In this document: positions 3,785 through 32,650 of the stretch, piece after piece | How the letters are laid out: every line of letters begins with the position of its first letter | Position numbering within the stretch: the stretch's first letter is position 1 | Assembly: GCA_017399305.1 (NCBI GenBank) | Contig: JAFQDK010000018.1 | Span: 2,363 to 66,362, forward strand | From: Clostridia bacterium | GTDB taxonomy: Bacteria > Bacillota > Clostridia > Oscillospirales > CAG-272 | Length of the DNA: 64,000 nt | Reading direction: 5' to 3' | Program-made: the position numbers and the translations under genes | Notes under the pieces: generated by a model | Database searches by the model: none | Told to the model about the DNA's origin: nothing | The model's input: the letters and a program-made list of their open reading frames with translations, nothing else

Positions 3785-4391
3785 ACTGCGCCGCTTTGTT
3801 GCTTATCCACGCCTTGAAAGTTTCAAGCAAAATGTTGTAGTCATTTAGCCACTTAGCAGCGAGAACATCTTCATTAGCCGTTTTGTATGCTTCACCGCGC
3901 AGTTTCGCTTTTACCAAGTCCATAAACTCTATTGGGATATTTATACATTCCTCTCTTGCGTTACCGCCTTCATCAACCGTTTTAAGCGCAGGCTTTACAA
4001 AGTATATTATTTTAATATCTTTTGCACCTTCGGGTATATTAAGCCCGATATCGCTACCGTTTTTAAAAAACGTGTTCGGAAATATCACGCCGCTTGCAAC
4101 AGTTGATTTTATAAGCTGTACATCATCAACATATACAGCGTATATATCCTCAAATCTAACCGGACTTTCGTCCTCAGATACAGGAATATCGCAAACAGAC
4201 AAAAGATGCACGCTTGAATCCACGATGCTCTTAGCAAAACACTTCTGCTGTTGTATAATCTCGGTGTAAAGCAACTGTTCAAGGGCATTCAACCATAAAA
4301 CATAGCTTGCATCCGAAATAGGAATTGCTATGTCTACTTCGTTTTTTAGTTCAGCGATAAGCTCCTTTGCCGTAATTGTACTTTTAAACAT
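3774..4391 (-). CDS. Phage structural protein, unknown
   Basis: 205-aa ORF, tightly packed in late operon. Confidence 0.4.
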   Translation of the reverse strand: MFKSTITAKELIAELKNEVDIAIPISDASYVLWLNALEQLLYTEIIQQQKCFAKSIVDSSVHLLSVCDIPVSEDESPVRFEDIYAVYVDDVQLIKSTVASGVIFPNTFFKNGSDIGLNIPEGAKDIKIIYFVKPALKTVDEGGNAREECINIPIEFMDLVKAKLRGEAYKTANEDVLAAKWLNDYNILLETFKAWISNKAAQFGM

Positions 4392-11551: not shown

Positions 11552-11625
11552 TGGCAGAGCATCAAGGAATCGAACCTTGACACATGGGGCCCAAACCCAA
11601 TGCGCTACCTTTACGCTAATGCTCT
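11552..11625 (-). tRNA. Phage-encoded tRNA, anticodon most likely UGG (Pro)
   Basis: 74 nt ending GCCA; acceptor AGAGCAT/ATGCTCT, D-arm GCGT-AAAGGTA-GCGC, anticodon arm TTGGG-TTTGGGC-CCCAT, T-arm CAAGG-TTCGATT-CCTTG folded by hand. Confidence 0.7.
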
Positions 11626-18858: not shown

Positions 18859-19349
18859 CTTTCAAGCAGTAGTGCAAGTTCTGCCGGTGTTGCCGTTTCA
18901 ATGTCAAGAGCCTTGCAGTCTTGTACAACAAGGTCGATTAAGCGTGACATTTGCGCTGTATCATAAGTAGAAGAACCGCGATACGCAATCACCGTTGCAC
19001 AACCGGGCAACTTCGATTCTCCGCGTACTGCAACATTCCCAAGGTGCCCTTGCGACCAAGCTTTGCAAAAATCGTCTACGGCTTCTTCTTTCATACAGTA
19101 CACATCTCTAACGCCTACTTCTATTATGTAGTCACGGTATAATTGGGTAGTGCCGGGCAAGTATCTCTTTTCCGCCAACTTGCCGAGCAACACCCAAAAA
19201 TACGCGTTTGCATCAAGACTGCGCTTTTTACGAGATTTGTCTATCGTCATGACATACTCGGTGCTATCGTCAAGACTCTGGAAAAATTGCCCGAGCCTTG
19301 ACATAAGACCGAATGCATCAGATTTCTTAAAACGAAATTCTTGCTTCAT
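18846..19349 (-). CDS. Recombination-module protein (NinB/Orf-like, tentative)
   Basis: 167 aa next to Erf; RSLDANAYFWVLLGKLAEK motif. Confidence 0.35.
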   Translation of the reverse strand: MKQEFRFKKSDAFGLMSRLGQFFQSLDDSTEYVMTIDKSRKKRSLDANAYFWVLLGKLAEKRYLPGTTQLYRDYIIEVGVRDVYCMKEEAVDDFCKAWSQGHLGNVAVRGESKLPGCATVIAYRGSSTYDTAQMSRLIDLVVQDCKALDIETATPAELALLLERWEK

Positions 19350-20041
19350 ATCGCTTTAAGTACCTTGTCGAAATCAGTACATTTTATCTCAGCGGTTTTG
19401 TTTACGCCGAACATTTTGAGAAAATCGCCGTACTTAGCAATGTTATCACCTGCGACTTGTCCGTTTTTTGCTTCCCAAGCATCCATAATTTGTTTCTGTT
19501 GTGCAACCGTCAATGTATTCTTAACAGGCGGTGCTTCTACTTTTGGAACTTGAGTTTCTGCTTCTGCGGTATTCTTGCATTTATAATTGTTTTCTTCGCT
19601 TGCGGATTGGTCAGGGTCGTCCCCTGTTGAGATTTTATATGCTTTCATAAGCGCATACTTATCTGCATACGTCATTGCCTTACCGCTTCCTTTGTCTTGC
19701 GAATCAATACCCTCGGCAAAGGTTGTTGTTTCAATATATTCTTCAGGCTTTTCAACGTTTACAAAGCGATAAATTGTTTCTATTCTCGTCATGAAGATTG
19801 TTTTTTTGGTTGTTTGACCGTTGTATGTGCTTTCACTTTCAAGCATATTGCTTTCAAGTACCTTGCGACTTACAGGATAACTGTAAACACCATGCTCGGT
19901 TTCAAGGGGCTTTACCGCATCAAGAATATCCCTTTCCGACACGGCTTTGTATGAAGTTGTTTTTGTCTGTTGCACCGTCAAGTTCTTTGCAACCGTCTGT
20001 AATTCTGCGGTTATAGCCGCCATTTTTTCAAATATGTTCAT
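19346..20041 (-). CDS. erf: ERF-family single-strand annealing protein
   Basis: ORF 19346-20074; ATG at 20041 (MNIFEKMAAITAELQTV) has GAGGAG RBS; ERF-like N-terminus. Confidence 0.7.
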   Translation of the reverse strand: MNIFEKMAAITAELQTVAKNLTVQQTKTTSYKAVSERDILDAVKPLETEHGVYSYPVSRKVLESNMLESESTYNGQTTKKTIFMTRIETIYRFVNVEKPEEYIETTTFAEGIDSQDKGSGKAMTYADKYALMKAYKISTGDDPDQSASEENNYKCKNTAEAETQVPKVEAPPVKNTLTVAQQKQIMDAWEAKNGQVAGDNIAKYGDFLKMFGVNKTAEIKCTDFDKVLKAI

Positions 20042-20255
20042 CTTTATTCTCCTCAAACTCAAGCGGGCAATCATCCGCTATAATCTCAATCGAATACACA
20101 ACATTACCTGTCAATCTGCAAAAATGTCGGCTGTTGGCTTCGTCAGCCCTTAAATGCGGACACCATTTGCACTTAACATCATCTTCAGGAAAATGAACTG
20201 GGATGTGCGCTATTGCAGTTGTGTACCAAGTAATACCTTTATCAAATTTACCCAT
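20028..20255 (-). CDS. Small Cys-rich hypothetical protein
   Basis: 75-aa ORF. Confidence 0.35.
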   Translation of the reverse strand: MGKFDKGITWYTTAIAHIPVHFPEDDVKCKWCPHLRADEANSRHFCRLTGNVVYSIEIIADDCPLEFEENKDEHI

Positions 20256-20502
20256 GACACATAGCCTCTCTTATCCAAGCTTCTTTCCTGTCGAGCGCTT
20301 CAAGTAAATTTGCTCTATCTTCTTCAAGATGTTTTAAGTCTGCTAATAGCTTTTCCATCTTAGTTATATCTGCATCGCAGAAGTCGCACTCCGCTTCGTT
20401 TTGCACAAGTAGCCAGGTCTCTTTTATTTCCTGTTCTTTCTGCTCAAGTAAATATTCAATCGATGGTTCAGCCTCTTTGCGTTCAAAAAACGACATTTTC
20501 AT
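20248..20502 (-). CDS. Small acidic coiled-coil hypothetical protein
   Basis: 84-aa ORF. Confidence 0.35.
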   Translation of the reverse strand: MKMSFFERKEAEPSIEYLLEQKEQEIKETWLLVQNEAECDFCDADITKMEKLLADLKHLEEDRANLLEALDRKEAWIREAMCHG

Positions 20503-21085
20503 TCTCCTTTATGTTTAGATACCACTCTATAAAGTCTCGCGCATACTCAAATGACCATGCAACAATGCATCTGTGTCCCTGCGCTCTCAATTTACAGAGC
20601 CATTGATTTTGTTCTACCGTAGGCTTGCCGCCATCGGCTTTCATTTCTATGTATAGGCTGTGCCACTTTCCACGAGCCACAGGTAAGCAAAGGTCGGGCA
20701 CACCTCTTTTAAGTCCGAGAGCTTTAAGTATTGCGCCTGCAATTTTTGACCGCTTGCCCTCATTGGGGACATGATATATAAGGTCAAGCTCAGGGTATTT
20801 GCCTTTCATGGCCTCACACCAATCAATCAGGGCTCTTTGGTCAGCAGTTTCGTCAATACAGGATTTGTACCCCTCATTACCATATAAAGGCTTGCTTTTT
20901 TCTTTGGTTTGTGATATACTTGATTTGTATCTATCAGCGGGTGTTTTCTCACCCCTTGCCTCTGCGGTTGCCGCCGCAGGGGCTTTTTCTTTTTCTGTCC
21001 TCGCTTTTATCCGGAAGCCCACGCACATGCACCGCTCTCCCGGATCAAGCGTTGCTCCGCACTCAGGGCAAAAATAATTGTGCAA
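20483..21085 (-). CDS. VRR-NUC domain nuclease with N-terminal zinc ribbon
   Basis: CPECG..CMC then VPDLCLPVARGKWHSLYIEMK...QNQWLCKLRAQGH (PD-(D/E)xK VRR-NUC pattern). Confidence 0.75.
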   Translation of the reverse strand: MHNYFCPECGATLDPGERCMCVGFRIKARTEKEKAPAAATAEARGEKTPADRYKSSISQTKEKSKPLYGNEGYKSCIDETADQRALIDWCEAMKGKYPELDLIYHVPNEGKRSKIAGAILKALGLKRGVPDLCLPVARGKWHSLYIEMKADGGKPTVEQNQWLCKLRAQGHRCIVAWSFEYARDFIEWYLNIKENENVVF

Positions 21086-21089
21086 TTCA

Positions 21090-22118
21090 TCATCTCCTTA
21101 ATATTTGATTTATTTTCGTGTCCATAGCCATACCCAAGTTATAGCAATTACCGTGCGATATGTGATTTTTCCATGCTCCGTAAGAAGTATCAAACTTTTC
21201 TATAGGCAATTTACCATTCACAACAAGCTTTGCCATTCGCAAATACTTTTTCTGTGCATTGCGCTTGTTTTGGTTCTTCAACTTGCGTATTACCTTGCCG
21301 CCGCTTGCAACATAGGTATGAAAACCGAGATAATTAACACCGCTTTTGAATGGGAATATCTGTGTTTTGCCATTGAGTTCAAGACCAAGTGTTATAAGAA
21401 ACTCCGTTATCGCCTCAAGGCAATATTTTAAATATTCCTTGCTCGGATGCATTAGATAGAAATCGTCCATGTATCTGCCGTAATACTCAATACCGAGTTC
21501 ACGGACGATAAGCTTGTCCATGCCATCAAGATATAGCAAAGCAAATCCTTGATTTATCTGATTACCGAGCGGTATTCCTTTGCCCTCGGTACTGTCAATA
21601 AACAAATTACAGAGCCAGCATATATCAGGATCATATGAGAAGTAGTATTCAACAATATCCTTTAATTGCTCGTGCGATATATTGTAGAAAAACTTTAATA
21701 TATCACACTTTAAGATGTAGCCGTTGCAACCGTATTTTCTGTAAAAAGCTTTCATATGAAAACTCAAACGGTCAAGTGCAAATAATGTTCCTTTACCTTT
21801 TTGCCCTGCGGCATTGTCATATAGGAAAATTCTCTGCATCTTTGGAAGTAGCACATTATCACATAGACTATGCTGCACGACCTTATCTTTGAAAGATGTC
21901 GTCTGTATAATACGCTCTTTAGGCTCGTATACTTTGAACTCGTTATACTTTGATATTCTGTAAGTTCTGTCGCTAAGTTGCGAAATCAACCGATTAATTG
22001 CATCTAATGCCATAGCACCGAATTTAGCAGAACTCTTTTTATAGCCTTTACCGCTTTTTGCTTTGCGGTAAGCTCTATACATGTTTTCAAAGTCTATTAC
22101 TTTCTCAAAATCGGTCAT
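21090..22118 (-). CDS. DGR-type reverse transcriptase
   Basis: YMDD box (GRYMDDFYLMH), GIPLGNQINQ in place of DGR-typical [LI]GxxxSQ, N-terminus MTDFEKVIDFENMYRAYRKAKSGK; I start at ATG 22118 because the track ORF (to 22295) reads through the TR. Confidence 0.85.
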   Translation of the reverse strand: MTDFEKVIDFENMYRAYRKAKSGKGYKKSSAKFGAMALDAINRLISQLSDRTYRISKYNEFKVYEPKERIIQTTSFKDKVVQHSLCDNVLLPKMQRIFLYDNAAGQKGKGTLFALDRLSFHMKAFYRKYGCNGYILKCDILKFFYNISHEQLKDIVEYYFSYDPDICWLCNLFIDSTEGKGIPLGNQINQGFALLYLDGMDKLIVRELGIEYYGRYMDDFYLMHPSKEYLKYCLEAITEFLITLGLELNGKTQIFPFKSGVNYLGFHTYVASGGKVIRKLKNQNKRNAQKKYLRMAKLVVNGKLPIEKFDTSYGAWKNHISHGNCYNLGMAMDTKINQILRR

Positions 22119-22222
22119 GCAGTTAAGTCCTTTTTGTTTATCCTTTTCGGAAAGGTCGCGCATTCTTTTGATGTGGAGTTCTGATTTGGGCTTATGCCTA
22201 CTCTGTCTGACTATCCACCAGT

Positions 22223-22286
22223 ACGGACGCACGCCGTTGTTGTTGTTACTGCTCATGTTGTTGATGTTGCCATCCGGCGAAACGCA
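22223..22286 (-). repeat. DGR template repeat (TR), 64 nt
   Basis: Minus strand TGCGTTTCGCCG GAT GGC AAC ATC AAC AAC ATG AGC AGT AAC AAC AAC AAC GGCGTGCGTCCGT; 19 A, seven AAC codons, A-free flanks shared with both VRs. Confidence 0.8.
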
Positions 22287-22311
22287 AAAACACAACGCGC
22301 AACCTATAAGT

Positions 22312-22689
22312 TTATTTTTGTTCTTTTGTTCTCCATGCGATAGCCATATACTTCACATCAGAAACCAACTTAGACCAGTAAGCAGCAGATTTTGGTGCTA
22401 ACGATACAACTTCCATTGAAAGCTCAATGAAAAACAATAATTCATCGCAATATGTAATTGCCTTGGTTATCGTCTCGCACCGTAAATACTTATTTGTTGC
22501 ATTATTTATCCTGTTAGCTTCAAGCAATAATTCATCTATCTCGATGCTCTTGATTTGAATTTTGTTACACAGTGAAACTCGGTATTTTTTAGGGTATCTA
22601 TCGCTATTGGAAGTTAATTTAAATGAATGTACGGCAAGTTCTTTTGCTTTTATAACAACTTTTAATTCGTTGTCTTTTTCTTTAGTCAT
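22312..22689 (-). CDS. avd: Avd-like accessory variability determinant (four-helix-bundle protein)
   Basis: About 125 aa, basic, helical; ATG at 22689 overlaps target-1 stop (ATGACTAA); sits between target and TR as in canonical DGRs. Confidence 0.75.
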   Translation of the reverse strand: MTKEKDNELKVVIKAKELAVHSFKLTSNSDRYPKKYRVSLCNKIQIKSIEIDELLLEANRINNATNKYLRCETITKAITYCDELLFFIELSMEVVSLAPKSAAYWSKLVSDVKYMAIAWRTKEQK

Positions 22690-23209
22690 CACAAGATACA
22701 AAGATAGAAGATACAAAGTTCAAAAACGGACGCACGCCGCGGCAGCCGTAACTGACGTAGAAATCGTAGATGTCGCCGGACGGCGAAACGCAAAGGCACC
22801 AATTATCACCGAAATATTCATCTGTGCTATCAGGCGTAGCAAGCCACCAATATTTATCAAGCTTATGCTTTTCAAACAATGGGCGGTTTTTGCGGTAAAA
22901 ATCAAGTGTGGGTATGCTGATTCTTGATGTCATAACACCATACTTAGCCGAACCATCTAAAGAAAGCAAATCAGTTTCAAACTCAAGCACGTTTTCAGCA
23001 CCTACAATATTTTCAATCTCCGGCAATACTTCTTCCGTGAGACGCTTCATAATATCGCTACTTCTGAAATCGTTATTATCGCCGAAACGAGAATCGAAAA
23101 GTCTATCCTTGCATACTGCAATAACTCTGCCGTTTTCTTCGCCAAAATTGATAAATTCATATTTGCCAAGGTTGAAAGTTCCATCGGCATTTACTTTGAT
23201 TTTTTCCAT
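22682..23209 (-). CDS. DGR target protein 1 (C-terminal variable region, CLec/DUF6273-like WWLATP...GVRPF)
   Basis: 175 aa; C-terminus ..WWLATPDSTDEYFGDNWCLCVSPSGDIYDFYVSYGCRGVRPF carries VR1. Confidence 0.8.
   Translation of the reverse strand: MEKIKVNADGTFNLGKYEFINFGEENGRVIAVCKDRLFDSRFGDNNDFRSSDIMKRLTEEVLPEIENIVGAENVLEFETDLLSLDGSAKYGVMTSRISIPTLDFYRKNRPLFEKHKLDKYWWLATPDSTDEYFGDNWCLCVSPSGDIYDFYVSYGCRGVRPFLNFVSSIFVSCDD
22726..22792 (-). repeat. DGR variable repeat VR1, 67 nt
   Basis: Same A-free flanks as TR; 3' 28 nt differ from TR only at TR adenines (7 of 9 A changed, 0 of 19 non-A). Confidence 0.75.
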
Positions 23210-23223
23210 GTTACTTCTCCTTT

Positions 23224-23829
23224 TTAAGATACAAAGATATCAGAGTCTAAGATACAAAACGGACGCACGCCCGTGGAGTCGTTGAAACTGCCGTAGCAAT
23301 TGAGGACGTCGCCGGCCGGCGAAACGCATTTGACCGTTTCGGAATAGCCATGCTTAGGAGTGCTGAACGGCGTTGCAAGCCACCACCAATCCTTTACTTT
23401 GTACTTATCAAGGATTTCTACATACTTGCGGTAAAGATTGCATGTGAGCAACGATACACGCGCCATAGTTGAACCGTAGCACTTGAGTCCATCATCCGCG
23501 GTTAAGTCTACACTATGCATACAGATGTTTTCTTCTCCGACAATTTCAGCAATCTCATCGGCGAACTTATCAAGGCGATTCTTTACATCGCTTGACTTAT
23601 AATCGTTGCTTTTGCCGAATTCCATTATTTCAAGAAAATCGCGCATCAGCAAATATGTATTGCCAGATTGATGCTCAAGCACAATAAATTCATACTCGCC
23701 GATTTCGACTGTTTCGCCTACGGTTGCATCACCGAGTTTCACCTGCGGAACAAATTGGCTTTTGATACTGTCAATCTGTTCTTTTGTTAACGGTATTTTC
23801 TTTCCGTTGATACATAAATAGTTTTTCAT
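23224..23829 (-). CDS. DGR target protein 2 (paralog of target 1)
   Basis: 201 aa; ..WWWLATPFSTPKHGYSETVKCVSPAGDVLNCYGSFNDSTGVRPF carries VR2; alignable with target 1 over most of its length. Confidence 0.8.
   Translation of the reverse strand: MKNYLCINGKKIPLTKEQIDSIKSQFVPQVKLGDATVGETVEIGEYEFIVLEHQSGNTYLLMRDFLEIMEFGKSNDYKSSDVKNRLDKFADEIAEIVGEENICMHSVDLTADDGLKCYGSTMARVSLLTCNLYRKYVEILDKYKVKDWWWLATPFSTPKHGYSETVKCVSPAGDVLNCYGSFNDSTGVRPFCILDSDIFVS
23259..23328 (-). repeat. DGR variable repeat VR2, 70 nt
   Basis: Flanks TGCGTTTCGCCG and GGCGTGCGTCCGT identical to TR; centre two codons longer than TR. Confidence 0.7.
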
Positions 23830-23840
23830 GTTATATCTCC

Positions 23841-24059
23841 TTATAAATAATAGTTTCTATAGATATTCTTTCTATGTTGCTTATTCTTGTAATAAACCGT
23901 CTGTATATCAAACAGCCAGTTGCAAGCTCTACGCTTTATGGCACCTAACACACGGGGGATATTTTCCCACTCGTCTGCAATGGTCCCGATAATACATAAA
24001 ACCACCGCAAACAATGCGATAAAGCCTACGCCCCAAAGCCATGTTTCAAAGAATGTCAA
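23841..24059 (-). CDS. Small membrane protein
   Basis: 72 aa, one TM helix (WLWGVGFIALFAVVLCIIGTI). Confidence 0.4.
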   Translation of the reverse strand: MTFFETWLWGVGFIALFAVVLCIIGTIADEWENIPRVLGAIKRRACNWLFDIQTVYYKNKQHRKNIYRNYYL

Positions 24060-24391
24060 AACAAACCACTCTCCTTGTCTATATATCCAGGATACGGATT
24101 GTTTGCTTCCGCATACCGTACCGATGTCTTGTACGCAAGCTGAGGAGCATTACACACAAAGAATAAATGAGTCGGTATGCAAAAGCCTCTGTTGCCACCC
24201 GCCGTTTTTTGCCACCCAAAGCCAAACGGACAACTGCCTGTGCTGATGCTCTCCCTAAGACTTTCAGGAGCCATGCCGAGAAACCTTGCCGCCTCTGCAG
24301 CAGGTATCGTTATAGGATACTTTTCACATAGCTCCATAAGCTCACGGAATCGCTTTTCAACACACTCGGGCATTCTAAAGATTTCTGCCAT
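24056..24391 (-). CDS. Early-operon hypothetical protein (possible HTH)
   Basis: 111-aa ORF, ITIPAAEAARFLGMAPESLRESI HTH-like. Confidence 0.4.
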   Translation of the reverse strand: MAEIFRMPECVEKRFRELMELCEKYPITIPAAEAARFLGMAPESLRESISTGSCPFGFGWQKTAGGNRGFCIPTHLFFVCNAPQLAYKTSVRYAEANNPYPGYIDKESGLF

Positions 24392-24473
24392 GATTATCCC
24401 TCCTTATAAATTTTGTTTTCCTTGCTTTCTAAAAGCACAACTGCTATACTTGAAAAGAAGGAAGTGAATTTAA

Positions 24474-24848
24474 ATGAAAACTAAAATTAAAGTAACTCAG
24501 CGAAATGTGAATAAAGTTCTTGATTATCTAAGTACCTACCCTTATTCCAAAGGCAAAATGATGTTCGTTGATGAAAAATTCTATAGCGGGCTACGTTTGA
24601 GCAAAGTTAAAGTCAATCAAACACTTAATGCGTTGCAAGAATTAAATATTATTGAAATAACACCACCGGTTTATAATAAACCTGCTACTATTTACCTTGC
24701 CGCCGGAGCTTTTTCTTATCGATTACTCAATCGTCAAAGCTTAACTCGCTTTTTGATACCTACTATTATTTCTGCCATAGCTCTGCTTAAAGCATTTGAT
24801 AGAGAACTGCTATTATTAGCCGAATTGATAGTAGACCTGCTAAAATAA
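24474..24848 (+). CDS. Plus-strand insert gene in the early operon (wHTH-like N-terminus plus C-terminal hydrophobic segment)
   Basis: 124-aa ORF with GAAGGAAG RBS, opposite orientation to all neighbours. Confidence 0.4.
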   Translation: MKTKIKVTQRNVNKVLDYLSTYPYSKGKMMFVDEKFYSGLRLSKVKVNQTLNALQELNIIEITPPVYNKPATIYLAAGAFSYRLLNRQSLTRFLIPTIISAIALLKAFDRELLLLAELIVDLLK

Positions 24849-24924
24849 TCAACGGCACCACAAAATCAGAAACCGATGTTATTACAATTCGCTGTTCTGC
24901 AATTTCTTTCTTTTTTTGTCTCAT
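24787..24924 (-). CDS. Possible 45-aa membrane peptide coupled to cro
   Basis: ATG overlaps cro stop (TAATG); MRQKKKEIAEQRIVITSVSDFVVPLIILAGLLSIRLIIAVLYQML; overlaps 3' end of 24474-24848 antisense. Confidence 0.25.
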   Translation of the reverse strand: MRQKKKEIAEQRIVITSVSDFVVPLIILAGLLSIRLIIAVLYQML

Positions 24925-25124
24925 TACAACTCCTTTGTTATATTAAGAATTTCGCATATAGCATCTACTATAACAGAGTTCTCATATTTGCCCGTGAGCG
25001 TCTTGTGCATATACGAGGTGTCAAAATACAGCCCCGTCTTGGCTTTTATCTGCTCAATAAGCCATGCTTGGTTCTTGTCCATGTCGATAAGAGCCTTTTT
25101 TACTTTCTTGCCAAATTCAGACAA
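24924..25124 (-). CDS. cro: Cro-like small HTH regulator
   Basis: Track ORF 24924-25142 starts at a TTG without SD; internal TTG at 25124 is 8 nt after AAAGGAG; divergent partner of cI-like gene. Confidence 0.55.
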   Translation of the reverse strand: MSEFGKKVKKALIDMDKNQAWLIEQIKAKTGLYFDTSYMHKTLTGKYENSVIVDAICEILNITKEL

Positions 25125-25150
25125 AATATCTTCTCCTTTCAATATTTGTA

Positions 25151-25179
25151 TTGACTTTTACGCAAAAGTGTAATAAAAT
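25151..25179 (+). promoter_or_regulatory. Sigma-70-type promoter directed toward cI-like gene
   Basis: TTGACT (25151-25156) - 17 nt - TAAAAT (25174-25179). Confidence 0.5.
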
Positions 25180-25198
25180 GGTGTTGTCCAGACATCGC

Positions 25199-25278
25199 AC
25201 TATTACAGTTTTGTGTAACCCTATGGCTACATATTACTACTTATTTCTGTAATAGTCAAGCGAAAATATTACAGTTTT
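25199..25278. promoter_or_regulatory. Operator repeats of the lysis/lysogeny switch
   Basis: TATTACAGTTTT at 25201-25212 and 25267-25278; inverted copy CTGTAATAGT 25247-25256 (reverse complement of ACTATTACAG 25199-25208). Confidence 0.6.
25231..25259 (-). promoter_or_regulatory. Sigma-70-type promoter directed toward cro-like gene
   Basis: Minus strand TTGACT (25259-25254) - 17 nt - TAATAT (25236-25231); operator copy lies in spacer/-35. Confidence 0.5.
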
Positions 25279-25318
25279 CAGTATTTCAGCGTTTTAGACA
25301 ATTGTGGGGGTAAGTAAT

Positions 25319-25675
25319 ATGTCAAAGTTGTACAATAACATTTTGTCGTTATGCGAGAATAAAGGAATTACGGGTTATCGCATGTGCAAAGAAATCGGAA
25401 TACAGCCAAGCATTTTAACAGATTTGAAAATGGGAAGAAAAGAAGGACTTTCTTCAAAAAATGCGGACAAAATCGCTCGTTACTTTGGCGTGTCGGTTGG
25501 ATATCTACTGGGAACAGACTATAGCGAAGTTGACGAAACAAAAAAATCCCCGTCCGTATCGGACGAGGATATAAAATTCGCATTATTTGGCGGCGAAGAT
25601 GAAATCACAGACGAGATGTGGCAGGCCGTAAAAGAATATGCAGAATTTATTAAAGATAAGCACGGAAAGAAATAG
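25319..25675 (+). CDS. XRE-family cI/ImmR-like repressor
   Basis: HTH GITGYRMCKEIGIQPSILTDLKMGRK; ATG 25319 follows GGGGG RBS (track start 25304 is GTG). Confidence 0.75.
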   Translation: MSKLYNNILSLCENKGITGYRMCKEIGIQPSILTDLKMGRKEGLSSKNADKIARYFGVSVGYLLGTDYSEVDETKKSPSVSDEDIKFALFGGEDEITDEMWQAVKEYAEFIKDKHGKK

Positions 25676-25684
25676 GGTGTAATA

Positions 25685-26476
25685 ATGGATACTTACATTG
25701 CATATTTTGATGAATCCGGCGACGATGGAATTTCAACGGCATCAAGCTCTTATTTCGTTCTTACAAGCATGTATATGAGCGCCGAATCTTGGCAAAGCAA
25801 CTACAACAAAATCAAAGCGTTCCGTGCTTCCTTGAAAAAATCACACGGATTTCACGCTTCCGAAGAAATGCATACAAAGCATTTACTATCCAACAAAGAA
25901 CCGTACCGCAAATATGGATGGACAAACCAACAACGGCAAGATATTATTAAATATTTTACTCTTTGTTTAGCAGAGTTGGATGTCAAATTTATAAACACTA
26001 TTATCGACAAAACAAAAATTACAACCTCTGACTATCATGTTTTGGAAAACGCTTTGAAATATAATATTCAGCGAATCGAGAACGATAGTGCCGGAAAATG
26101 GAATTATATTATCATTACCGATCAGGGAAGAATTGCACCGATGCGTAAAACCGCTCGAGCAATCCGTGCATACAATCCTATTCAATCTAAATACTCGCTT
26201 GATTTTAAAAACGAGCCTATAAATAATTTGATTGAAGACATTCTTGAAAAAGATTCAAAGGAATCATATTTTGTGCAGATGTGTGATTTTGTATCATATA
26301 TAGTACATTTATACTATAGGACACAATACAAAAAACAACCTCTCCCAAATAGAGTGGGACAGGTTGTTGACGAAAAATTTATTGGGCGAGTCATGGCAAC
26401 ATTAAAGAACTCAGGAAAACTGAATACAAAAGCAAGCAGTAGAAGCACCTACGGGCTTGTCATATACCCGAGATAA
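25685..26476 (+). CDS. DUF3800-family protein
   Basis: N-terminus YIAYFDESGDDG is the DUF3800 signature; 263 aa; 9 nt after repressor stop. Confidence 0.6.
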   Translation: MDTYIAYFDESGDDGISTASSSYFVLTSMYMSAESWQSNYNKIKAFRASLKKSHGFHASEEMHTKHLLSNKEPYRKYGWTNQQRQDIIKYFTLCLAELDVKFINTIIDKTKITTSDYHVLENALKYNIQRIENDSAGKWNYIIITDQGRIAPMRKTARAIRAYNPIQSKYSLDFKNEPINNLIEDILEKDSKESYFVQMCDFVSYIVHLYYRTQYKKQPLPNRVGQVVDEKFIGRVMATLKNSGKLNTKASSRSTYGLVIYPR

Positions 26477-26628
26477 AAGAAAACACCACCTACGAGGCAT
26501 TCGCCCTTTCAGTGGTTCAATGTAATTATACACTATTATTTACGATTTGTCAACACCATTTCACGAAAAATCTTTCGTGTTTCTGTACGATTTATTGTAC
26601 ACCCTTTGCTGTAAAATAATATCCGGAG

Positions 26629-27045
26629 GTGAATCACATGAATGTATTGAAACTTTATGACATTGCAAAAAAGCACGACATCATGGTGAACACCCGAGAT
26701 ATTCCGCCGCCATCAATGGCAATAGAGGTATGCGGTATTAAAGGTATCGCGCTCCGAAAGGACCTCACAAAAGCAGAGGAACGGTCCTATCTCTCACACG
26801 AACTCGGACACCATATAAAAGGTGCACTCTACAGCAAAGAAACACCTTGTTTCACCCGAGGGCAATGCGAACATAAAGCGAACAAGTGGGCAATACATAA
26901 ACTTATTCCGTTTCGCTCACTCTATGCAGCATTTCGCAAAGGTTATGTCGAAGTCTGGCAACTTGCCGAATACTTCGATGTAACAGAAGATTTTATATTA
27001 AAAACAATAGAGATATACAAGCAGGAAGGCAAATTGCCGATATAG
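26629..27045 (+). CDS. immA: ImmA/IrrE-family zinc metalloprotease
   Basis: HEXXH motif SHELGHHIKG; about 138 aa; lysogeny module context. Confidence 0.75.
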   Translation: MNHMNVLKLYDIAKKHDIMVNTRDIPPPSMAIEVCGIKGIALRKDLTKAEERSYLSHELGHHIKGALYSKETPCFTRGQCEHKANKWAIHKLIPFRSLYAAFRKGYVEVWQLAEYFDVTEDFILKTIEIYKQEGKLPI

Positions 27046-27461: not shown

Positions 27462-28583
27462 ATGCCACGCAAAAAAGCCACAAAGCGAGCCGACGGCAGA
27501 TATGTTTCAACACTTGTAGTCGGAACTGATGCAAACGGCAAGCTTGAGCGCAAATACTTCTACTCAAACAAATCGCAGACAGATGCAAACAACAAGCGTG
27601 ATGCGTATAAGGCCGAGCAGACCGCAAAAGGGCTCCTCGGTACAGCTCCCGGAGAAGCAAAAAAGGTAAAGCTTGAAACATGGGCGAGAAAATGGCTTGA
27701 AACGAAATCGGGCAAGGTAAAAGAATCAACTTTCGATACATCATACCGCCGCCCAACAGAAAGGTATATCATACCCAAACTCGGTAACCGATACATCGCC
27801 GACATCAAACCTATAGAAATTGATGCCTTTTTCACTAAACTCGGCGAAAACTATTCGCAGACTGTACTGCAGAAAACAAAGATATGTCTTTCTGCCATAT
27901 ACGATAGTGCAATAGATAATAACATATGCTATAAAAACCCTTGCAAAAATGTTGAAATAAGTAGCAAAAAGAAAAAAGGCGATAAACGGACCTATACCGA
28001 AGAACAAGTCAAAGATATCCTTGCTTTTGCAGATACCGATATGTACGGCATATATATTCGTTTACTCCTCGAACTCGGTCTTCGCTGTTCTGAACTTTGC
28101 GGCCTTAAATGGTCCGATTTCGACCTTAACAAGCGAACCGTAAACATAGAGCGAGCCGCAACTGATAATAACGGGTTAACCGTTGTTGATGTACCAAAAA
28201 GTAAAACAAGCATTCGCAGGCTTCCCTTTTCAACGGCATTATTAAACGCACTAAAGCAAATCCCCGATATAAACACCGATAAATATATTGTAGAGTCAAC
28301 CAAGACACCTAATACCCCTGTAAACCCCAAAAATTTCGCTTCTAAGCGATATAAAACTTTTTGGAACAGATACCTTGAAACAATGTCCGAAAGCGAACAG
28401 AAGACATTCCCGCTGCTGTCACCGCATGAATTAAGACATACCTGCGGCACTCTTATGTATAACCGTTCCAAAAACATCTATGCTGTATCAAAATACCTTG
28501 GTCATGCAACAGTTGATATTACATCACGATTATATGTCCACAACGATATAGATACCCTAAGAGAAAGCCTCGGAATTGAGTAA
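27462..28583 (+). CDS. int: Tyrosine recombinase (phage integrase)
   Basis: GLRCSELCGLKW (Arg box), HELRHTCGT, LGHATVDITSRLYVH (catalytic Tyr region). Confidence 0.9.
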   Translation: MPRKKATKRADGRYVSTLVVGTDANGKLERKYFYSNKSQTDANNKRDAYKAEQTAKGLLGTAPGEAKKVKLETWARKWLETKSGKVKESTFDTSYRRPTERYIIPKLGNRYIADIKPIEIDAFFTKLGENYSQTVLQKTKICLSAIYDSAIDNNICYKNPCKNVEISSKKKKGDKRTYTEEQVKDILAFADTDMYGIYIRLLLELGLRCSELCGLKWSDFDLNKRTVNIERAATDNNGLTVVDVPKSKTSIRRLPFSTALLNALKQIPDINTDKYIVESTKTPNTPVNPKNFASKRYKTFWNRYLETMSESEQKTFPLLSPHELRHTCGTLMYNRSKNIYAVSKYLGHATVDITSRLYVHNDIDTLRESLGIE

Positions 28584-32563: not shown

Positions 32564-32650
32564 TGGTGCCGGTAGTCGGGGTCGAACCGACACGGTATCG
32601 CTACCATCGGATTTTGAGTCCGACACGTCTGCCAATTCCATCATACCGGC
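32564..32650 (-). tRNA. tRNA-Leu (CAA)
   Basis: GCCGGTATGATGGAATTGGCAGACGTGTCGGACTCAAAATCCGATGGTAGCGATACCGTGTCGGTTCGACCCCGACTACCGGCACCA; type-II long variable arm, anticodon loop CTCAAAA. Confidence 0.9.

Follow-up and report, generated by a model that had tools for sequence, protein, structure and literature searches.

Tens of thousands of diversity-generating retroelements (DGRs) have been catalogued and the type is familiar, so an element of this kind is no discovery in itself. In the DGR of Bordetella phage BPP-1 (mtd-avd-TR-brt) there is a single target, the tail-fibre protein Mtd, together with a template repeat (TR) of 134 nt and a spacer of about 140 nt. The cassette described here shows the same order of target, avd, TR, spacer and reverse transcriptase (RT) gene, both systems have an Avd-type accessory protein, and in both the TR adenines lie mostly in AAC codons. 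It differs from BPP-1 in having two small tandem targets of predicted DUF6273 fold, a TR of 64 nt and a spacer of 104 nt, and in its location in an early replication/recombination module and not by tail genes. Further similar systems are the Faecalibacterium prophages Lelie, CP11, Roos and Pioen and the phages nd4 and nd12 (the “tentaclin” paper), which we liken to our cassette by their published description. They, too, are phages or prophages of gut Bacillota. DUF6273, which has been described as a C-type-lectin-like domain of DGR targets, is found in their target proteins and has the VR at its C-terminal end; the targets can come in pairs, among them a small single-domain DUF6273 protein (PMC11792537; PMC10743442). 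Some of these DGRs gave no activity signal in sequencing reads (PMC11792537; PMC10743442). In our case, by contrast, the two targets (175 and 201 aa) are small paralogues of one domain each, without a large Ig-repeat or tail-fibre partner, and the hosts are uncultured Clostridia/Oscillospiraceae-type MAGs.

The cassette was found on the minus strand of the window, i.e. the whole 64,000-nt stretch of a Clostridia bacterium contig that was analysed. The initial annotation had read it as a complete DGR in the order target-2, target-1, Avd, TR, spacer, RT, and all coordinates hold after re-checking. Target gene 2 (23224..23829; 201 aa, single-domain DUF6273) carries VR2 at its C-terminal end (23259..23328, residues 168-191), which with 70 nt corresponds to the TR plus two codons. 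In target gene 1 (22682..23209; 175 aa) the repeat VR1 (22726..22792, residues 140-162) has 67 nt, equal to the TR plus one codon. The gene of the Avd-like accessory protein follows (22312..22689; 125 aa), and the ORF coordinates bear out the overlap of its start codon (ATG at 22689) with the stop of target 1. Between avd and the RT gene lies the non-coding TR (22223..22286), whose 64 nt include 19 adenines and seven AAC codons as had been noticed before, and a spacer of 104 nt (22119..22222) leads to the RT gene (21090..22118; 342 aa). The ORFs of RT, Avd and both targets are intact. The flanks of the repeats, TGCGTTTCGCCG and GGCGTGCGTCCGT with lengths of 12 and 13 nt, are indeed identical in TR, VR1 and VR2: each occurs exactly three times in the 64-kb window, always on the minus strand and paired as TR, VR1 (22792-22726) and VR2 (23328-23259).

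The assignment to a prophage is well founded, since integrase, repressor module, recombination and replication genes, terminase, portal and major head protein were all found. The cassette sits in the early replication/recombination module, and in five relatives with other backbones it adjoins replication genes. Target 1 is a paralogue of target 2 with 38% identity, and both match phrog_9958 (E 3e-31 and 7e-35, respectively). Target 2 reaches 23.3 bits against Pfam DUF6273 (E 6e-5), just short of the cutoff of 23.5. An AF2 model of target 2 (pLDDT 87.5) finds its best structural matches in DUF6273 phage proteins (BFVD, E 6e-9) and also matches the DUF6273-bearing IgA peptidase of T. ramosa (9qa6, E 6e-5), supporting a predicted DUF6273 fold of the targets. 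A Foldseek search of the PDB with the target model yielded no Mtd, TvpA or other clear C-type-lectin match. Because the cassette lies in the early module and has no targets besides the two small DUF6273 proteins, which are single-domain and signal-less, the DGR might diversify early-expressed non-virion binders, for instance of host factors or defence systems, and not receptor-binding tail proteins; we regard this as quite unlikely, and the occurrence of small DUF6273 targets in an early operon as a point of modest value.

We analysed the RNA surrounding the TR for conserved structure. Four helical elements are located in the spacer: P1 (22220-22215 with 22176-22169), P2 (22211-22209 with 22181-22178) and the hairpins P3 (22198-22189) and P4 (22151-22141), the latter followed by an A-rich tail (22140-22131). 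RNAalifold alone returned two short hairpins only, and the longer helices were derived from column-pair inspection, a named-structure count and a custom arm-pair count. In an alignment of 81 sequences the spacer helices covary, with 91.9% of cells paired compared to 85.5% after shuffling and ten pairs with double-sided changes; slid controls reached 30–40%. A long-range helix of 11 bp connects the 5' arm GGTTGCGCGTT (22294..22304), which lies 7 nt upstream of the TR, to a 3' arm at spacer nt 59-69 (22164-22154). It covaries as well, with 94.5% of positions paired among 35 distinct arm pairs compared to 86.5 ± 0.8% when partners were permuted. By covariation the cassette thus shows the features of a structured DGR RNA, in which a putative template:primer duplex and a putative cPRT Stop duplex bracket the TR.

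By analogy, P1 and the 11-bp helix match the priming duplex and the “cPRT Stop” of the Bordetella DGR RNA, making P1 the candidate template:primer duplex. The 5' arm would be the counterpart of the avd strand in the Bordetella “cPRT Stop” duplex, which in BPP-1 is formed by Sp 59-70 with avd 369-379 (bioRxiv 10.1101/2023.10.23.563531), and in both systems the duplex is followed by a short stem-loop and then adenosines. The covarying elements map onto the Bordetella cryo-EM model and support a conserved priming and stop architecture in Bacillota phages. The spacer also shows a sub-threshold match to the Rfam RT-2 RNA (RF03077; 26.2 bits, E 0.002, 22069-22215), with 34.2 bits for the relative L103 at a gathering threshold of 40 bits. 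Strand and location upstream of the RT are both right, the blocks GUCAGACAAAGUAGCC...GGCGAAAUCAGGAC align with the P2/P3 region and a later hairpin followed by UAAA aligns with the P4 hairpin, whereas the model's long 3' hairpin has no counterpart here.

The same cassette is present in about 80 distinct relatives from Clostridia gut MAGs and IMG/VR contigs, which form a compact family of many members and provide about 80 distinct TR/VR sets. Among 126 TR/VR pairs of equal length (79 distinct relatives), 1309 of 2496 adenines (52%) are changed as opposed to 71 of 5715 other bases (1.2%), demonstrating a real and active DGR family. No non-adenine mismatch at all was found in 87 of these pairs, and most others have one. 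TR and VR differ in length in 18 of 144 family pairs, mostly by one codon beside AAC runs and otherwise at adenines only, as in L159 VR2 and L120 VR1. We considered this codon-length variation as a new DGR capability and rejected the idea, as it has already been described (PMC5758913). Ongoing diversification, with VR alleles varying under a constant TR, was observed in four sister pairs of loci (L009/L021, L019/L094, L103/L135 and L120/L128). A blastn search against GenBank phages gave one weak match of 248 nt and nothing more, and exact-match scans of IMG/VR and JGI metagenome contigs with the TR core gave no match.

Within the cassette of the window a non-coding TR near the RT gene and VRs at gene 3' ends differ mainly at TR adenines, although strict colinearity with A-to-N differences alone is not observed. 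The best alignment of TR and VR1 contains one 3-nt gap and changes at 13 of 19 adenines compared to 5 of 45 non-adenines (Fisher p about 1e-5). For VR2 two 3-nt gaps are required, with 12 of 19 adenines and 3 of 45 non-adenines changed, and Fisher p for the adenine bias ranges from about 1e-5 to 5e-6. The bias is therefore real and far above chance, but TR and VRs are not colinear. The initial annotation had seen the hallmark of mutagenic retrohoming in the last 28 nt of VR1. This 3' part is indeed colinear with the TR and differs at adenines only, with 7 of 9 TR adenines and 0 of 19 other bases changed, yet it was a selective choice, being the cleanest stretch of the repeat; the adenine bias is significant, but with TR and VRs out of register a fresh hallmark in this copy is unsupported. 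Strict colinearity is typical of DGRs and not universal, since indels occur in 7% and non-A substitutions in 23% of curated DGRs, and both have been explained by slippage of the RT at AAC repeats (PMC5758913), so that a mismatch need not mean drift of the TR. Most non-adenine differences found here are common to VR1 and VR2, namely T to C in codon 1, TG to AC in the ATG codon and the first 3-nt gap, which points to a change on the TR side.

We located identical prophage copies by exact-protein look-ups. The same prophage is present in at least ten metagenome samples (ERZ28654001/SAMN15829899, ERZ28653922, ERZ28654015, ERZ28653877, ERZ28653904, ERZ28019142, ERZ28019037, ERZ28019354, SRR12529060 and SRR12529065) with 99.4–100% identity over up to 5.5 kb. 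The 90% cluster of target 1 consists of a single member, found on 12 contigs by cluster look-up and on 15 by contig look-up. TR, VR1 and VR2 are identical in all of these samples save for one SNP at a non-adenine site. Polymorphism of the VRs at TR adenines, whose absence the initial annotation had counted against a DGR, was thus not seen among these at least ten consensus assemblies, which come from two studies and apparently represent one clonal lysogen lineage. VR1 and VR2 show no allele variation at this consensus level, giving no evidence of diversification now under way in the lineage, and the fixity of the VRs in every copy sampled makes the element look quiescent. The location in an early lytic operon suggests that the cassette is repressed in the lysogen, in which case a DGR that works in lytic growth would still leave the chromosomal VRs unchanged. 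As the best explanation we consider it likely that the locus is a structurally complete DGR of a temperate phage, in which the VRs were last rewritten before the TR changed and which currently appears quiescent.

It is possible, albeit clearly less probable, that the DGR is fully active at present, its indels and non-adenine differences arising from occasional errors and from slippage of the RT along AAC runs, and its VRs being fixed only because the sampled DNA stems from a repressed prophage in a clonal host. Every ORF and RNA element is intact, a repressor/Cro switch precedes the early lytic operon in which the cassette is located, and the one-codon length differences by AAC runs seen in the family are of the kind for which slippage is given as the cause in the literature (PMC5758913; PMC12875486). 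But VR1 and VR2 have the first gap and the non-adenine differences in common, which independent errors in two homings are unlikely to produce, and the non-adenine mismatch rate of 7–11% in this copy exceeds the 1.2% of the family. In addition, the present TR fits VR1 no better than TRs from unrelated phages do.

An improbable reading is that of a decaying remnant, in which a deletion and substitutions have spoiled the TR, or recombination with a related phage has exchanged it, so that homing yields no viable targets and the DGR is heading for loss. The lack of register between TR and VRs and the frozen VRs in at least ten samples would agree with it, but RT, Avd, both targets, the exact flanks and the covarying RNA helices are all intact, and relatives such as L008 have functional 64-nt VRs in both of their target genes. 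A possible recombinant, L161, would also fit this reading: it has the VR2 of the window in another phage backbone with a TR flank that does not match VR2. We downgraded it as proof of a transfer of VR segments between phages by recombination because it comes from the same sample as a window-type prophage and may be an assembly chimera. A structurally complete, quiescent-looking DGR with out-of-register repeats and fixed VRs represents a natural case useful for asking how many annotated “complete” DGRs idle.

The RT matches the phage RT family phrog_1423 with E 1e-102, and its best PDB match is the Bordetella phage bRT (8ub7; E 9e-30, residues 5-332), with which it aligns over its full length. 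The bRT match reaches 107 bits compared to 48 bits (1e-11) for the best group II intron RT of the PDB. Matches to Pfam RVT_1 (7e-14) and to a retron-type RT (5e-6) were also obtained, as well as weak generic matches of at most 66 bits to models of defence RTs (DRT). Judged by these similarities, the RT most probably belongs to the DGR lineage. A YMDD box (residue 216) and LGNQINQ (residue 184) are present as initially reported. Compared to the classical motif 4, [LIV]GxxxSQ, which reads IGSLTSQ in BPP-1, the G and the terminal Q are kept and S is replaced by N. The terminal Q of the motif, Q187 in bRT, touches the incoming dNTP (bioRxiv 10.1101/2023.10.23.563531). LGNQINQ is the norm in the family: of the 148 RT hits from the loci retrieved, counted without de-duplication, 85 have it and 38 more have A at the S position. 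Since these relatives show adenine-specific mutagenesis, a literal S is apparently not required in this clade.

The Avd-like protein, named four helix bundle protein by NCBI, matches phrog_3206 “Avd protein of DGR” (1e-15), whereas its matches to NCBIfam DivGenRetAVD (3e-6) and Pfam bAvd (0.0035) are both below cutoffs. Among 55 members of the family, 36 match Pfam bAvd (best 2e-8) and 41 match 23S_rRNA_IVP. Phmmer and profile searches of the PDB with the Avd query did not recover a solved Avd structure. The sequence matches indicate that the cassette has an Avd-type accessory protein. RT match, Avd match, the adenine-only TR/VR differences of the family and the prophage setting together bear out the DGR interpretation and support the cassette as a genuine DGR, one more member of a known and widespread family. 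That the RT belongs instead to a group II intron, retron or defence system and the TR/VR likeness is ordinary paralogy is highly improbable and largely refuted already: its top NCBIfam match is a group II intron RT/maturase model and generic DRT matches exist, but the former scores 79 bits against a cutoff of 300 and NCBIfam, though giving no DGR-RT match, returned only matches far under cutoffs, bRT is the top solved relative, the TR lies between avd and RT yet shares its exact 12- and 13-nt flanks with two gene ends, the 126 family pairs differ adenine-specifically, and an Rfam scan revealed no intron RNA or retron ncRNA.

From the comparison with the Bordetella DGR RNA we infer a priming site and an order of events. 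An early leftward operon would transcribe target-2, target-1, avd, TR, spacer and RT, and the 11-bp helix between the segment just upstream of the TR and spacer nt 59-69 would close the TR into a loop. The six nucleotides directly after the TR would pair with spacer nt 47-54. By this pairing one adenosine from the invariant CAAAAGAA block (at about spacer nt 55-57) would come to lie at the TR's 3' edge, where it may serve as self-primer. The RT, assisted by Avd, would copy the TR to cDNA and misincorporate opposite adenines. The cDNA would then replace the homologous 3' ends of both DUF6273 genes between the flanks, each rewriting changing about 13-15 codons of a presumed surface loop. The last full rewriting of both VRs would be older than the change of the TR, which probably comprised the loss of one codon and several substitutions in its 5' half, and the present TR would be mirrored only in the stretch that begins with the AGT codon they share and runs to the 3' flank.

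An IMH-type element would be GC-rich, lie at the 3' end of the VR and have a hairpin or cruciform downstream. Here the 13-nt GC-rich block closes TR, VR1 and VR2, and TR/VR homology stops directly after it, unlike in BPP-1. A second difference from BPP-1 is that the VRs have no GC hairpin downstream, and no stable hairpin was detected downstream of VR1 or VR2 (z-scores +0.1 and +1.4). A conserved direct repeat, two copies of TTTGTATCTT, is located downstream of both VR1 and VR2.

The initial annotation had described a complete diversity-generating retroelement (DGR), and on re-reading of the window all its coordinates and sequence statements proved correct. Its interpretation is supported as well: the element is a genuine, structurally complete DGR of an already known kind. 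The cassette occupies 21090–23829 on the minus strand in the order target 2 (23829–23224, 201 aa), target 1 (23209–22682, 175 aa), an Avd-like gene whose own ATG overlaps the target-1 stop codon (22689–22312), the template repeat TR (22286–22223; 64 nt with 19 adenines and seven AAC codons), a 104-nt spacer (22222–22119) and the reverse transcriptase (RT; 22118–21090, 342 aa). Within the 64-kb window the flanks TGCGTTTCGCCG and GGCGTGCGTCCGT occur exactly three times each, always paired and on the minus strand, and delimit TR and the variable repeats VR1 in target 1 (22792–22726, 67 nt) and VR2 in target 2 (23328–23259, 70 nt). Two copies of TTTGTATCTT follow each VR (22725–22690 and 23258–23226, minus strand), and both targets end in S-x-IFVS, invariant in 118 homologues; these features may reflect a constraint on the protein or may serve, at the DNA level, in target recognition. 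A GC hairpin was looked for downstream of VR1 and VR2 and none was found.

The RT carries YMDD at residue 216 and matches Pfam RVT_1 and the phage RT family phrog_1423 (E 1e-102). Among solved structures its best relative is the DGR RT of the Bordetella phage (8ub7, E 9e-30, residues 5–332 aligned), with weaker matches to group II intron (best E 1e-11) and retron-type (E 5e-6) RTs. No DGR-RT model match was returned in NCBIfam, where the best match was a group II RT/maturase model at 79 bits (cutoff 300); defence-RT models gave weak, generic matches only. The motif LGNQINQ at residue 184 lacks the serine of the classical [LIV]GxxxSQ and is the norm of the clade (85 of 148 RT matches in the fetched loci, not de-duplicated). 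The Avd-like protein matches the PHROG "Avd protein of DGR" (1e-15) and scores under the cutoffs of curated Avd models, while 36 of 55 members of its family match Pfam bAvd. Targets 1 and 2 are paralogues with 38% identity. An AlphaFold2 model of target 2 (pLDDT 87.5, confidence lowest across the VR residues) resembles DUF6273 phage proteins and also matches the IgA peptidase of Thomasclavelia ramosa, a protein solved by cryo-EM that carries DUF6273 as its N-terminal domain (PMC12402451). In the DGRs of Faecalibacterium prophages and of phages nd4/nd12, DUF6273 has been described as a target domain that is C-type-lectin-like (PMC11792537; PMC10743442). The window's four proteins are deposited at NCBI as MBQ4556549-52, from a Clostridia MAG.

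We then compared TR with its VRs. In the last 28 nt of VR1, which the initial annotation had offered as the hallmark of mutagenic retrohoming, 7 of 9 adenines and 0 of 19 other bases are changed; this comparison is exact, but represents the cleanest portion of a less clean full-length picture. The three repeats are unequal in length, and every placement of 3-nt gaps was enumerated. The best TR/VR1 alignment needs one such gap and shows changes at 13 of 19 adenines and 5 of 45 non-adenines; the best TR/VR2 alignment needs two, with 12 of 19 and 3 of 45 changed. This preference for adenines is highly significant (Fisher p ~1e-5), and the non-adenine mismatch of 7–11% exceeds the family average (1.2%) several-fold. 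The first gap and most non-adenine differences are common to VR1 and VR2, among them C for the T in the first TR codon and AC for the TG in TR's ATG codon, the simplest explanation being that TR changed at some time after the last complete writing of the VRs. With a hypothetical TR of sequence ACC GGC AAC ATC AAC AAT TAC TAC GAC AGT AAC AAC AAC AAC, VR1 would be accounted for via adenine changes alone, and VR2 except for an extra codon ACG before the 3' flank. TRs of unrelated phages fit VR1 as well as the window's own TR, and the present TR is mirrored only from the common AGT codon to the 3' flank.

Exact copies of the target-1 protein are encoded on 15 contigs, and target 1 is the single member of its 90% cluster. 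The initial annotation had proposed a search for VR polymorphism at TR-adenine positions; among ten loci fetched from ten samples of two studies, all consensus assemblies sharing 99.4–100% identity with the window across as much as 5.5 kb, no adenine-linked VR variation was seen. TR, VR1 and VR2 equal those of the window wherever present, some contigs being too short for all three, with the sole exception of one locus (L170), whose VR2 has a SNP at a position that is not an adenine. There is thus no consensus-level sign of diversification in this lineage, and no evidence of present diversification for the window's copy. The evidence best supports an account in which an earlier version of TR served to write the VRs and the element lies quiescent in those lysogens that were sampled. 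The main rival, a less likely reading, is a DGR that is still active, shows slippage of a non-canonical kind and stays silent in the lysogenic state.

RT scans retrieved 158 loci from IMG/VR and MAGs, the latter assigned to Clostridia, Oscillospiraceae, Faecousia, Acutalibacteraceae and others from animal and human guts; RT identity of close relatives is 71–81%. In 79 distinct loci the same flanks bound at least two repeat copies (TR and one or two VRs), usually in the order two VRs, then TR. Across 126 equal-length pairs, TR and VR differ at 1309 of 2496 adenine positions against 71 of 5715 others, and four pairs of loci hold different VR alleles under one common TR, which together make this a genuine, active DGR family. 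Length differs in 18 of 144 family pairs, the VR mostly being one codon longer next to AAC runs (L005, L018, L020, L086, L101, L110, L120, L126, L137, L138, L151, L159 and others), and such pairs usually differ otherwise at adenines only. Length differences are known in ~7% of DGRs (PMC5758913) and have been ascribed to RT slippage (PMC5758913; PMC12875486); the codon-length variation is therefore a known DGR feature and not new. Ordinary paralogy as the source of TR/VR similarity is excluded by the family's adenine bias and the VR alleles under a common TR.

A sister phage (L159, 86% identity) has a 67-nt TR, a VR1 colinear with it and differing at adenines only, and a VR2 one codon longer. 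Locus L161 equals L159 except for a ~490-bp tract (within L161 4001–5150) 100% identical to window 23490–23005, a stretch that takes in the 3' half of target 2, VR2 included, and runs into the beginning of target 1; the VR2 flank of L161 consequently mismatches the flank of its own TR. The sample that yielded L161 also yielded a window-type prophage (L162), so L161 is a recombinant or else an artefact of chimeric assembly. A scaffold of the window's prophage (L165, 2047–2162) contains an N run and a second, diverged spacer copy, indicating that the sample also contains a related DGR phage, which disturbed the scaffolding.

The spacer is strongly conserved (81 aligned sequences). Its proposed structure comprises helix P1, formed on the minus strand by the six nt directly after TR and spacer 47–54, helix P2, and the spacer hairpins P3 (GGC/GCC) and P4 (UCC-GAAAA-GGA); 91.9% of cells are paired compared to 85.5% when shuffled and 30–40% with slid partners, and double-sided changes occur at 10 of 15 pairs. 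An 11-bp long-range helix joins GGTTGCGCGTT (22304–22294), 7 nt upstream of TR, to AATGCGCGACC (22164–22154; spacer 59–69), both minus strand. Here 94.5% of cells are paired compared to 86.5 ± 0.8% with permuted partners (35 distinct arm pairs), and compensatory changes occur at five central pairs. This layout parallels that of the Bordetella DGR RNA, in which cryo-EM showed spacer positions (Sp) 47–56 paired with the TR 3' end, presenting the priming A56, and Sp 59–70 paired with avd 369–379 as "cPRT Stop", followed by a short stem-loop and A-minor adenosines (bioRxiv 10.1101/2023.10.23.563531). By analogy, a candidate priming adenosine would lie within the invariant CAAAAGAA block at spacer 55–57. 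Rfam RT-2 (RF03077) matches below its gathering score of 40 at window 22069–22215, minus strand (26.2 bits), and at 3902–4050 of the related locus L103 (34.2 bits), suggesting that RT-2 may correspond to the spacer RNA in a related group of DGRs. TR and spacer are also stop-free and in frame with the RT ORF (21090–22295, minus strand), so gene callers report a 401-aa "RT" starting upstream of TR. The same holds for 45 of 80 distinct relatives. Among relatives the spacer varies in length by steps of 3 (104, 107, 110 nt); either inherited conservation or a genuine constraint may lie behind this.

The cassette sits within a prophage. A plus-strand lysogeny module (25304–27045) with an XRE-type HTH repressor, a DUF3800 protein (25685–26476) and an ImmA/IrrE-like metallopeptidase (26629–27045) adjoins the rightward integrase (27462–28583, plus strand). 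The leftward early operon holds the cassette, then VRR-NUC, Erf, NinB, SSB and the replication initiator, beyond which lie HNH, terminase, portal and major head protein genes. In the region 19346–25675 the cassette lies inside the early replication/recombination module and not beside tail genes. In the five loci examined on other backbones (L008, L014, L081, L092, L103) it lies beside replication-initiator or DnaC-like genes, upstream of terminase. The cassette travels as a unit: target-2, target-1 and Avd homologues occur in 87–89 of 105 close relatives as opposed to only 3 of 105 with a VRR-NUC homologue within the fetched flank. A tRNA-Pro gene (11552–11625) lies inside the prophage between the terminase and HNH genes, and a tRNA-Leu gene (32564–32650) ~4 kb past the integrase could mark the attachment site.
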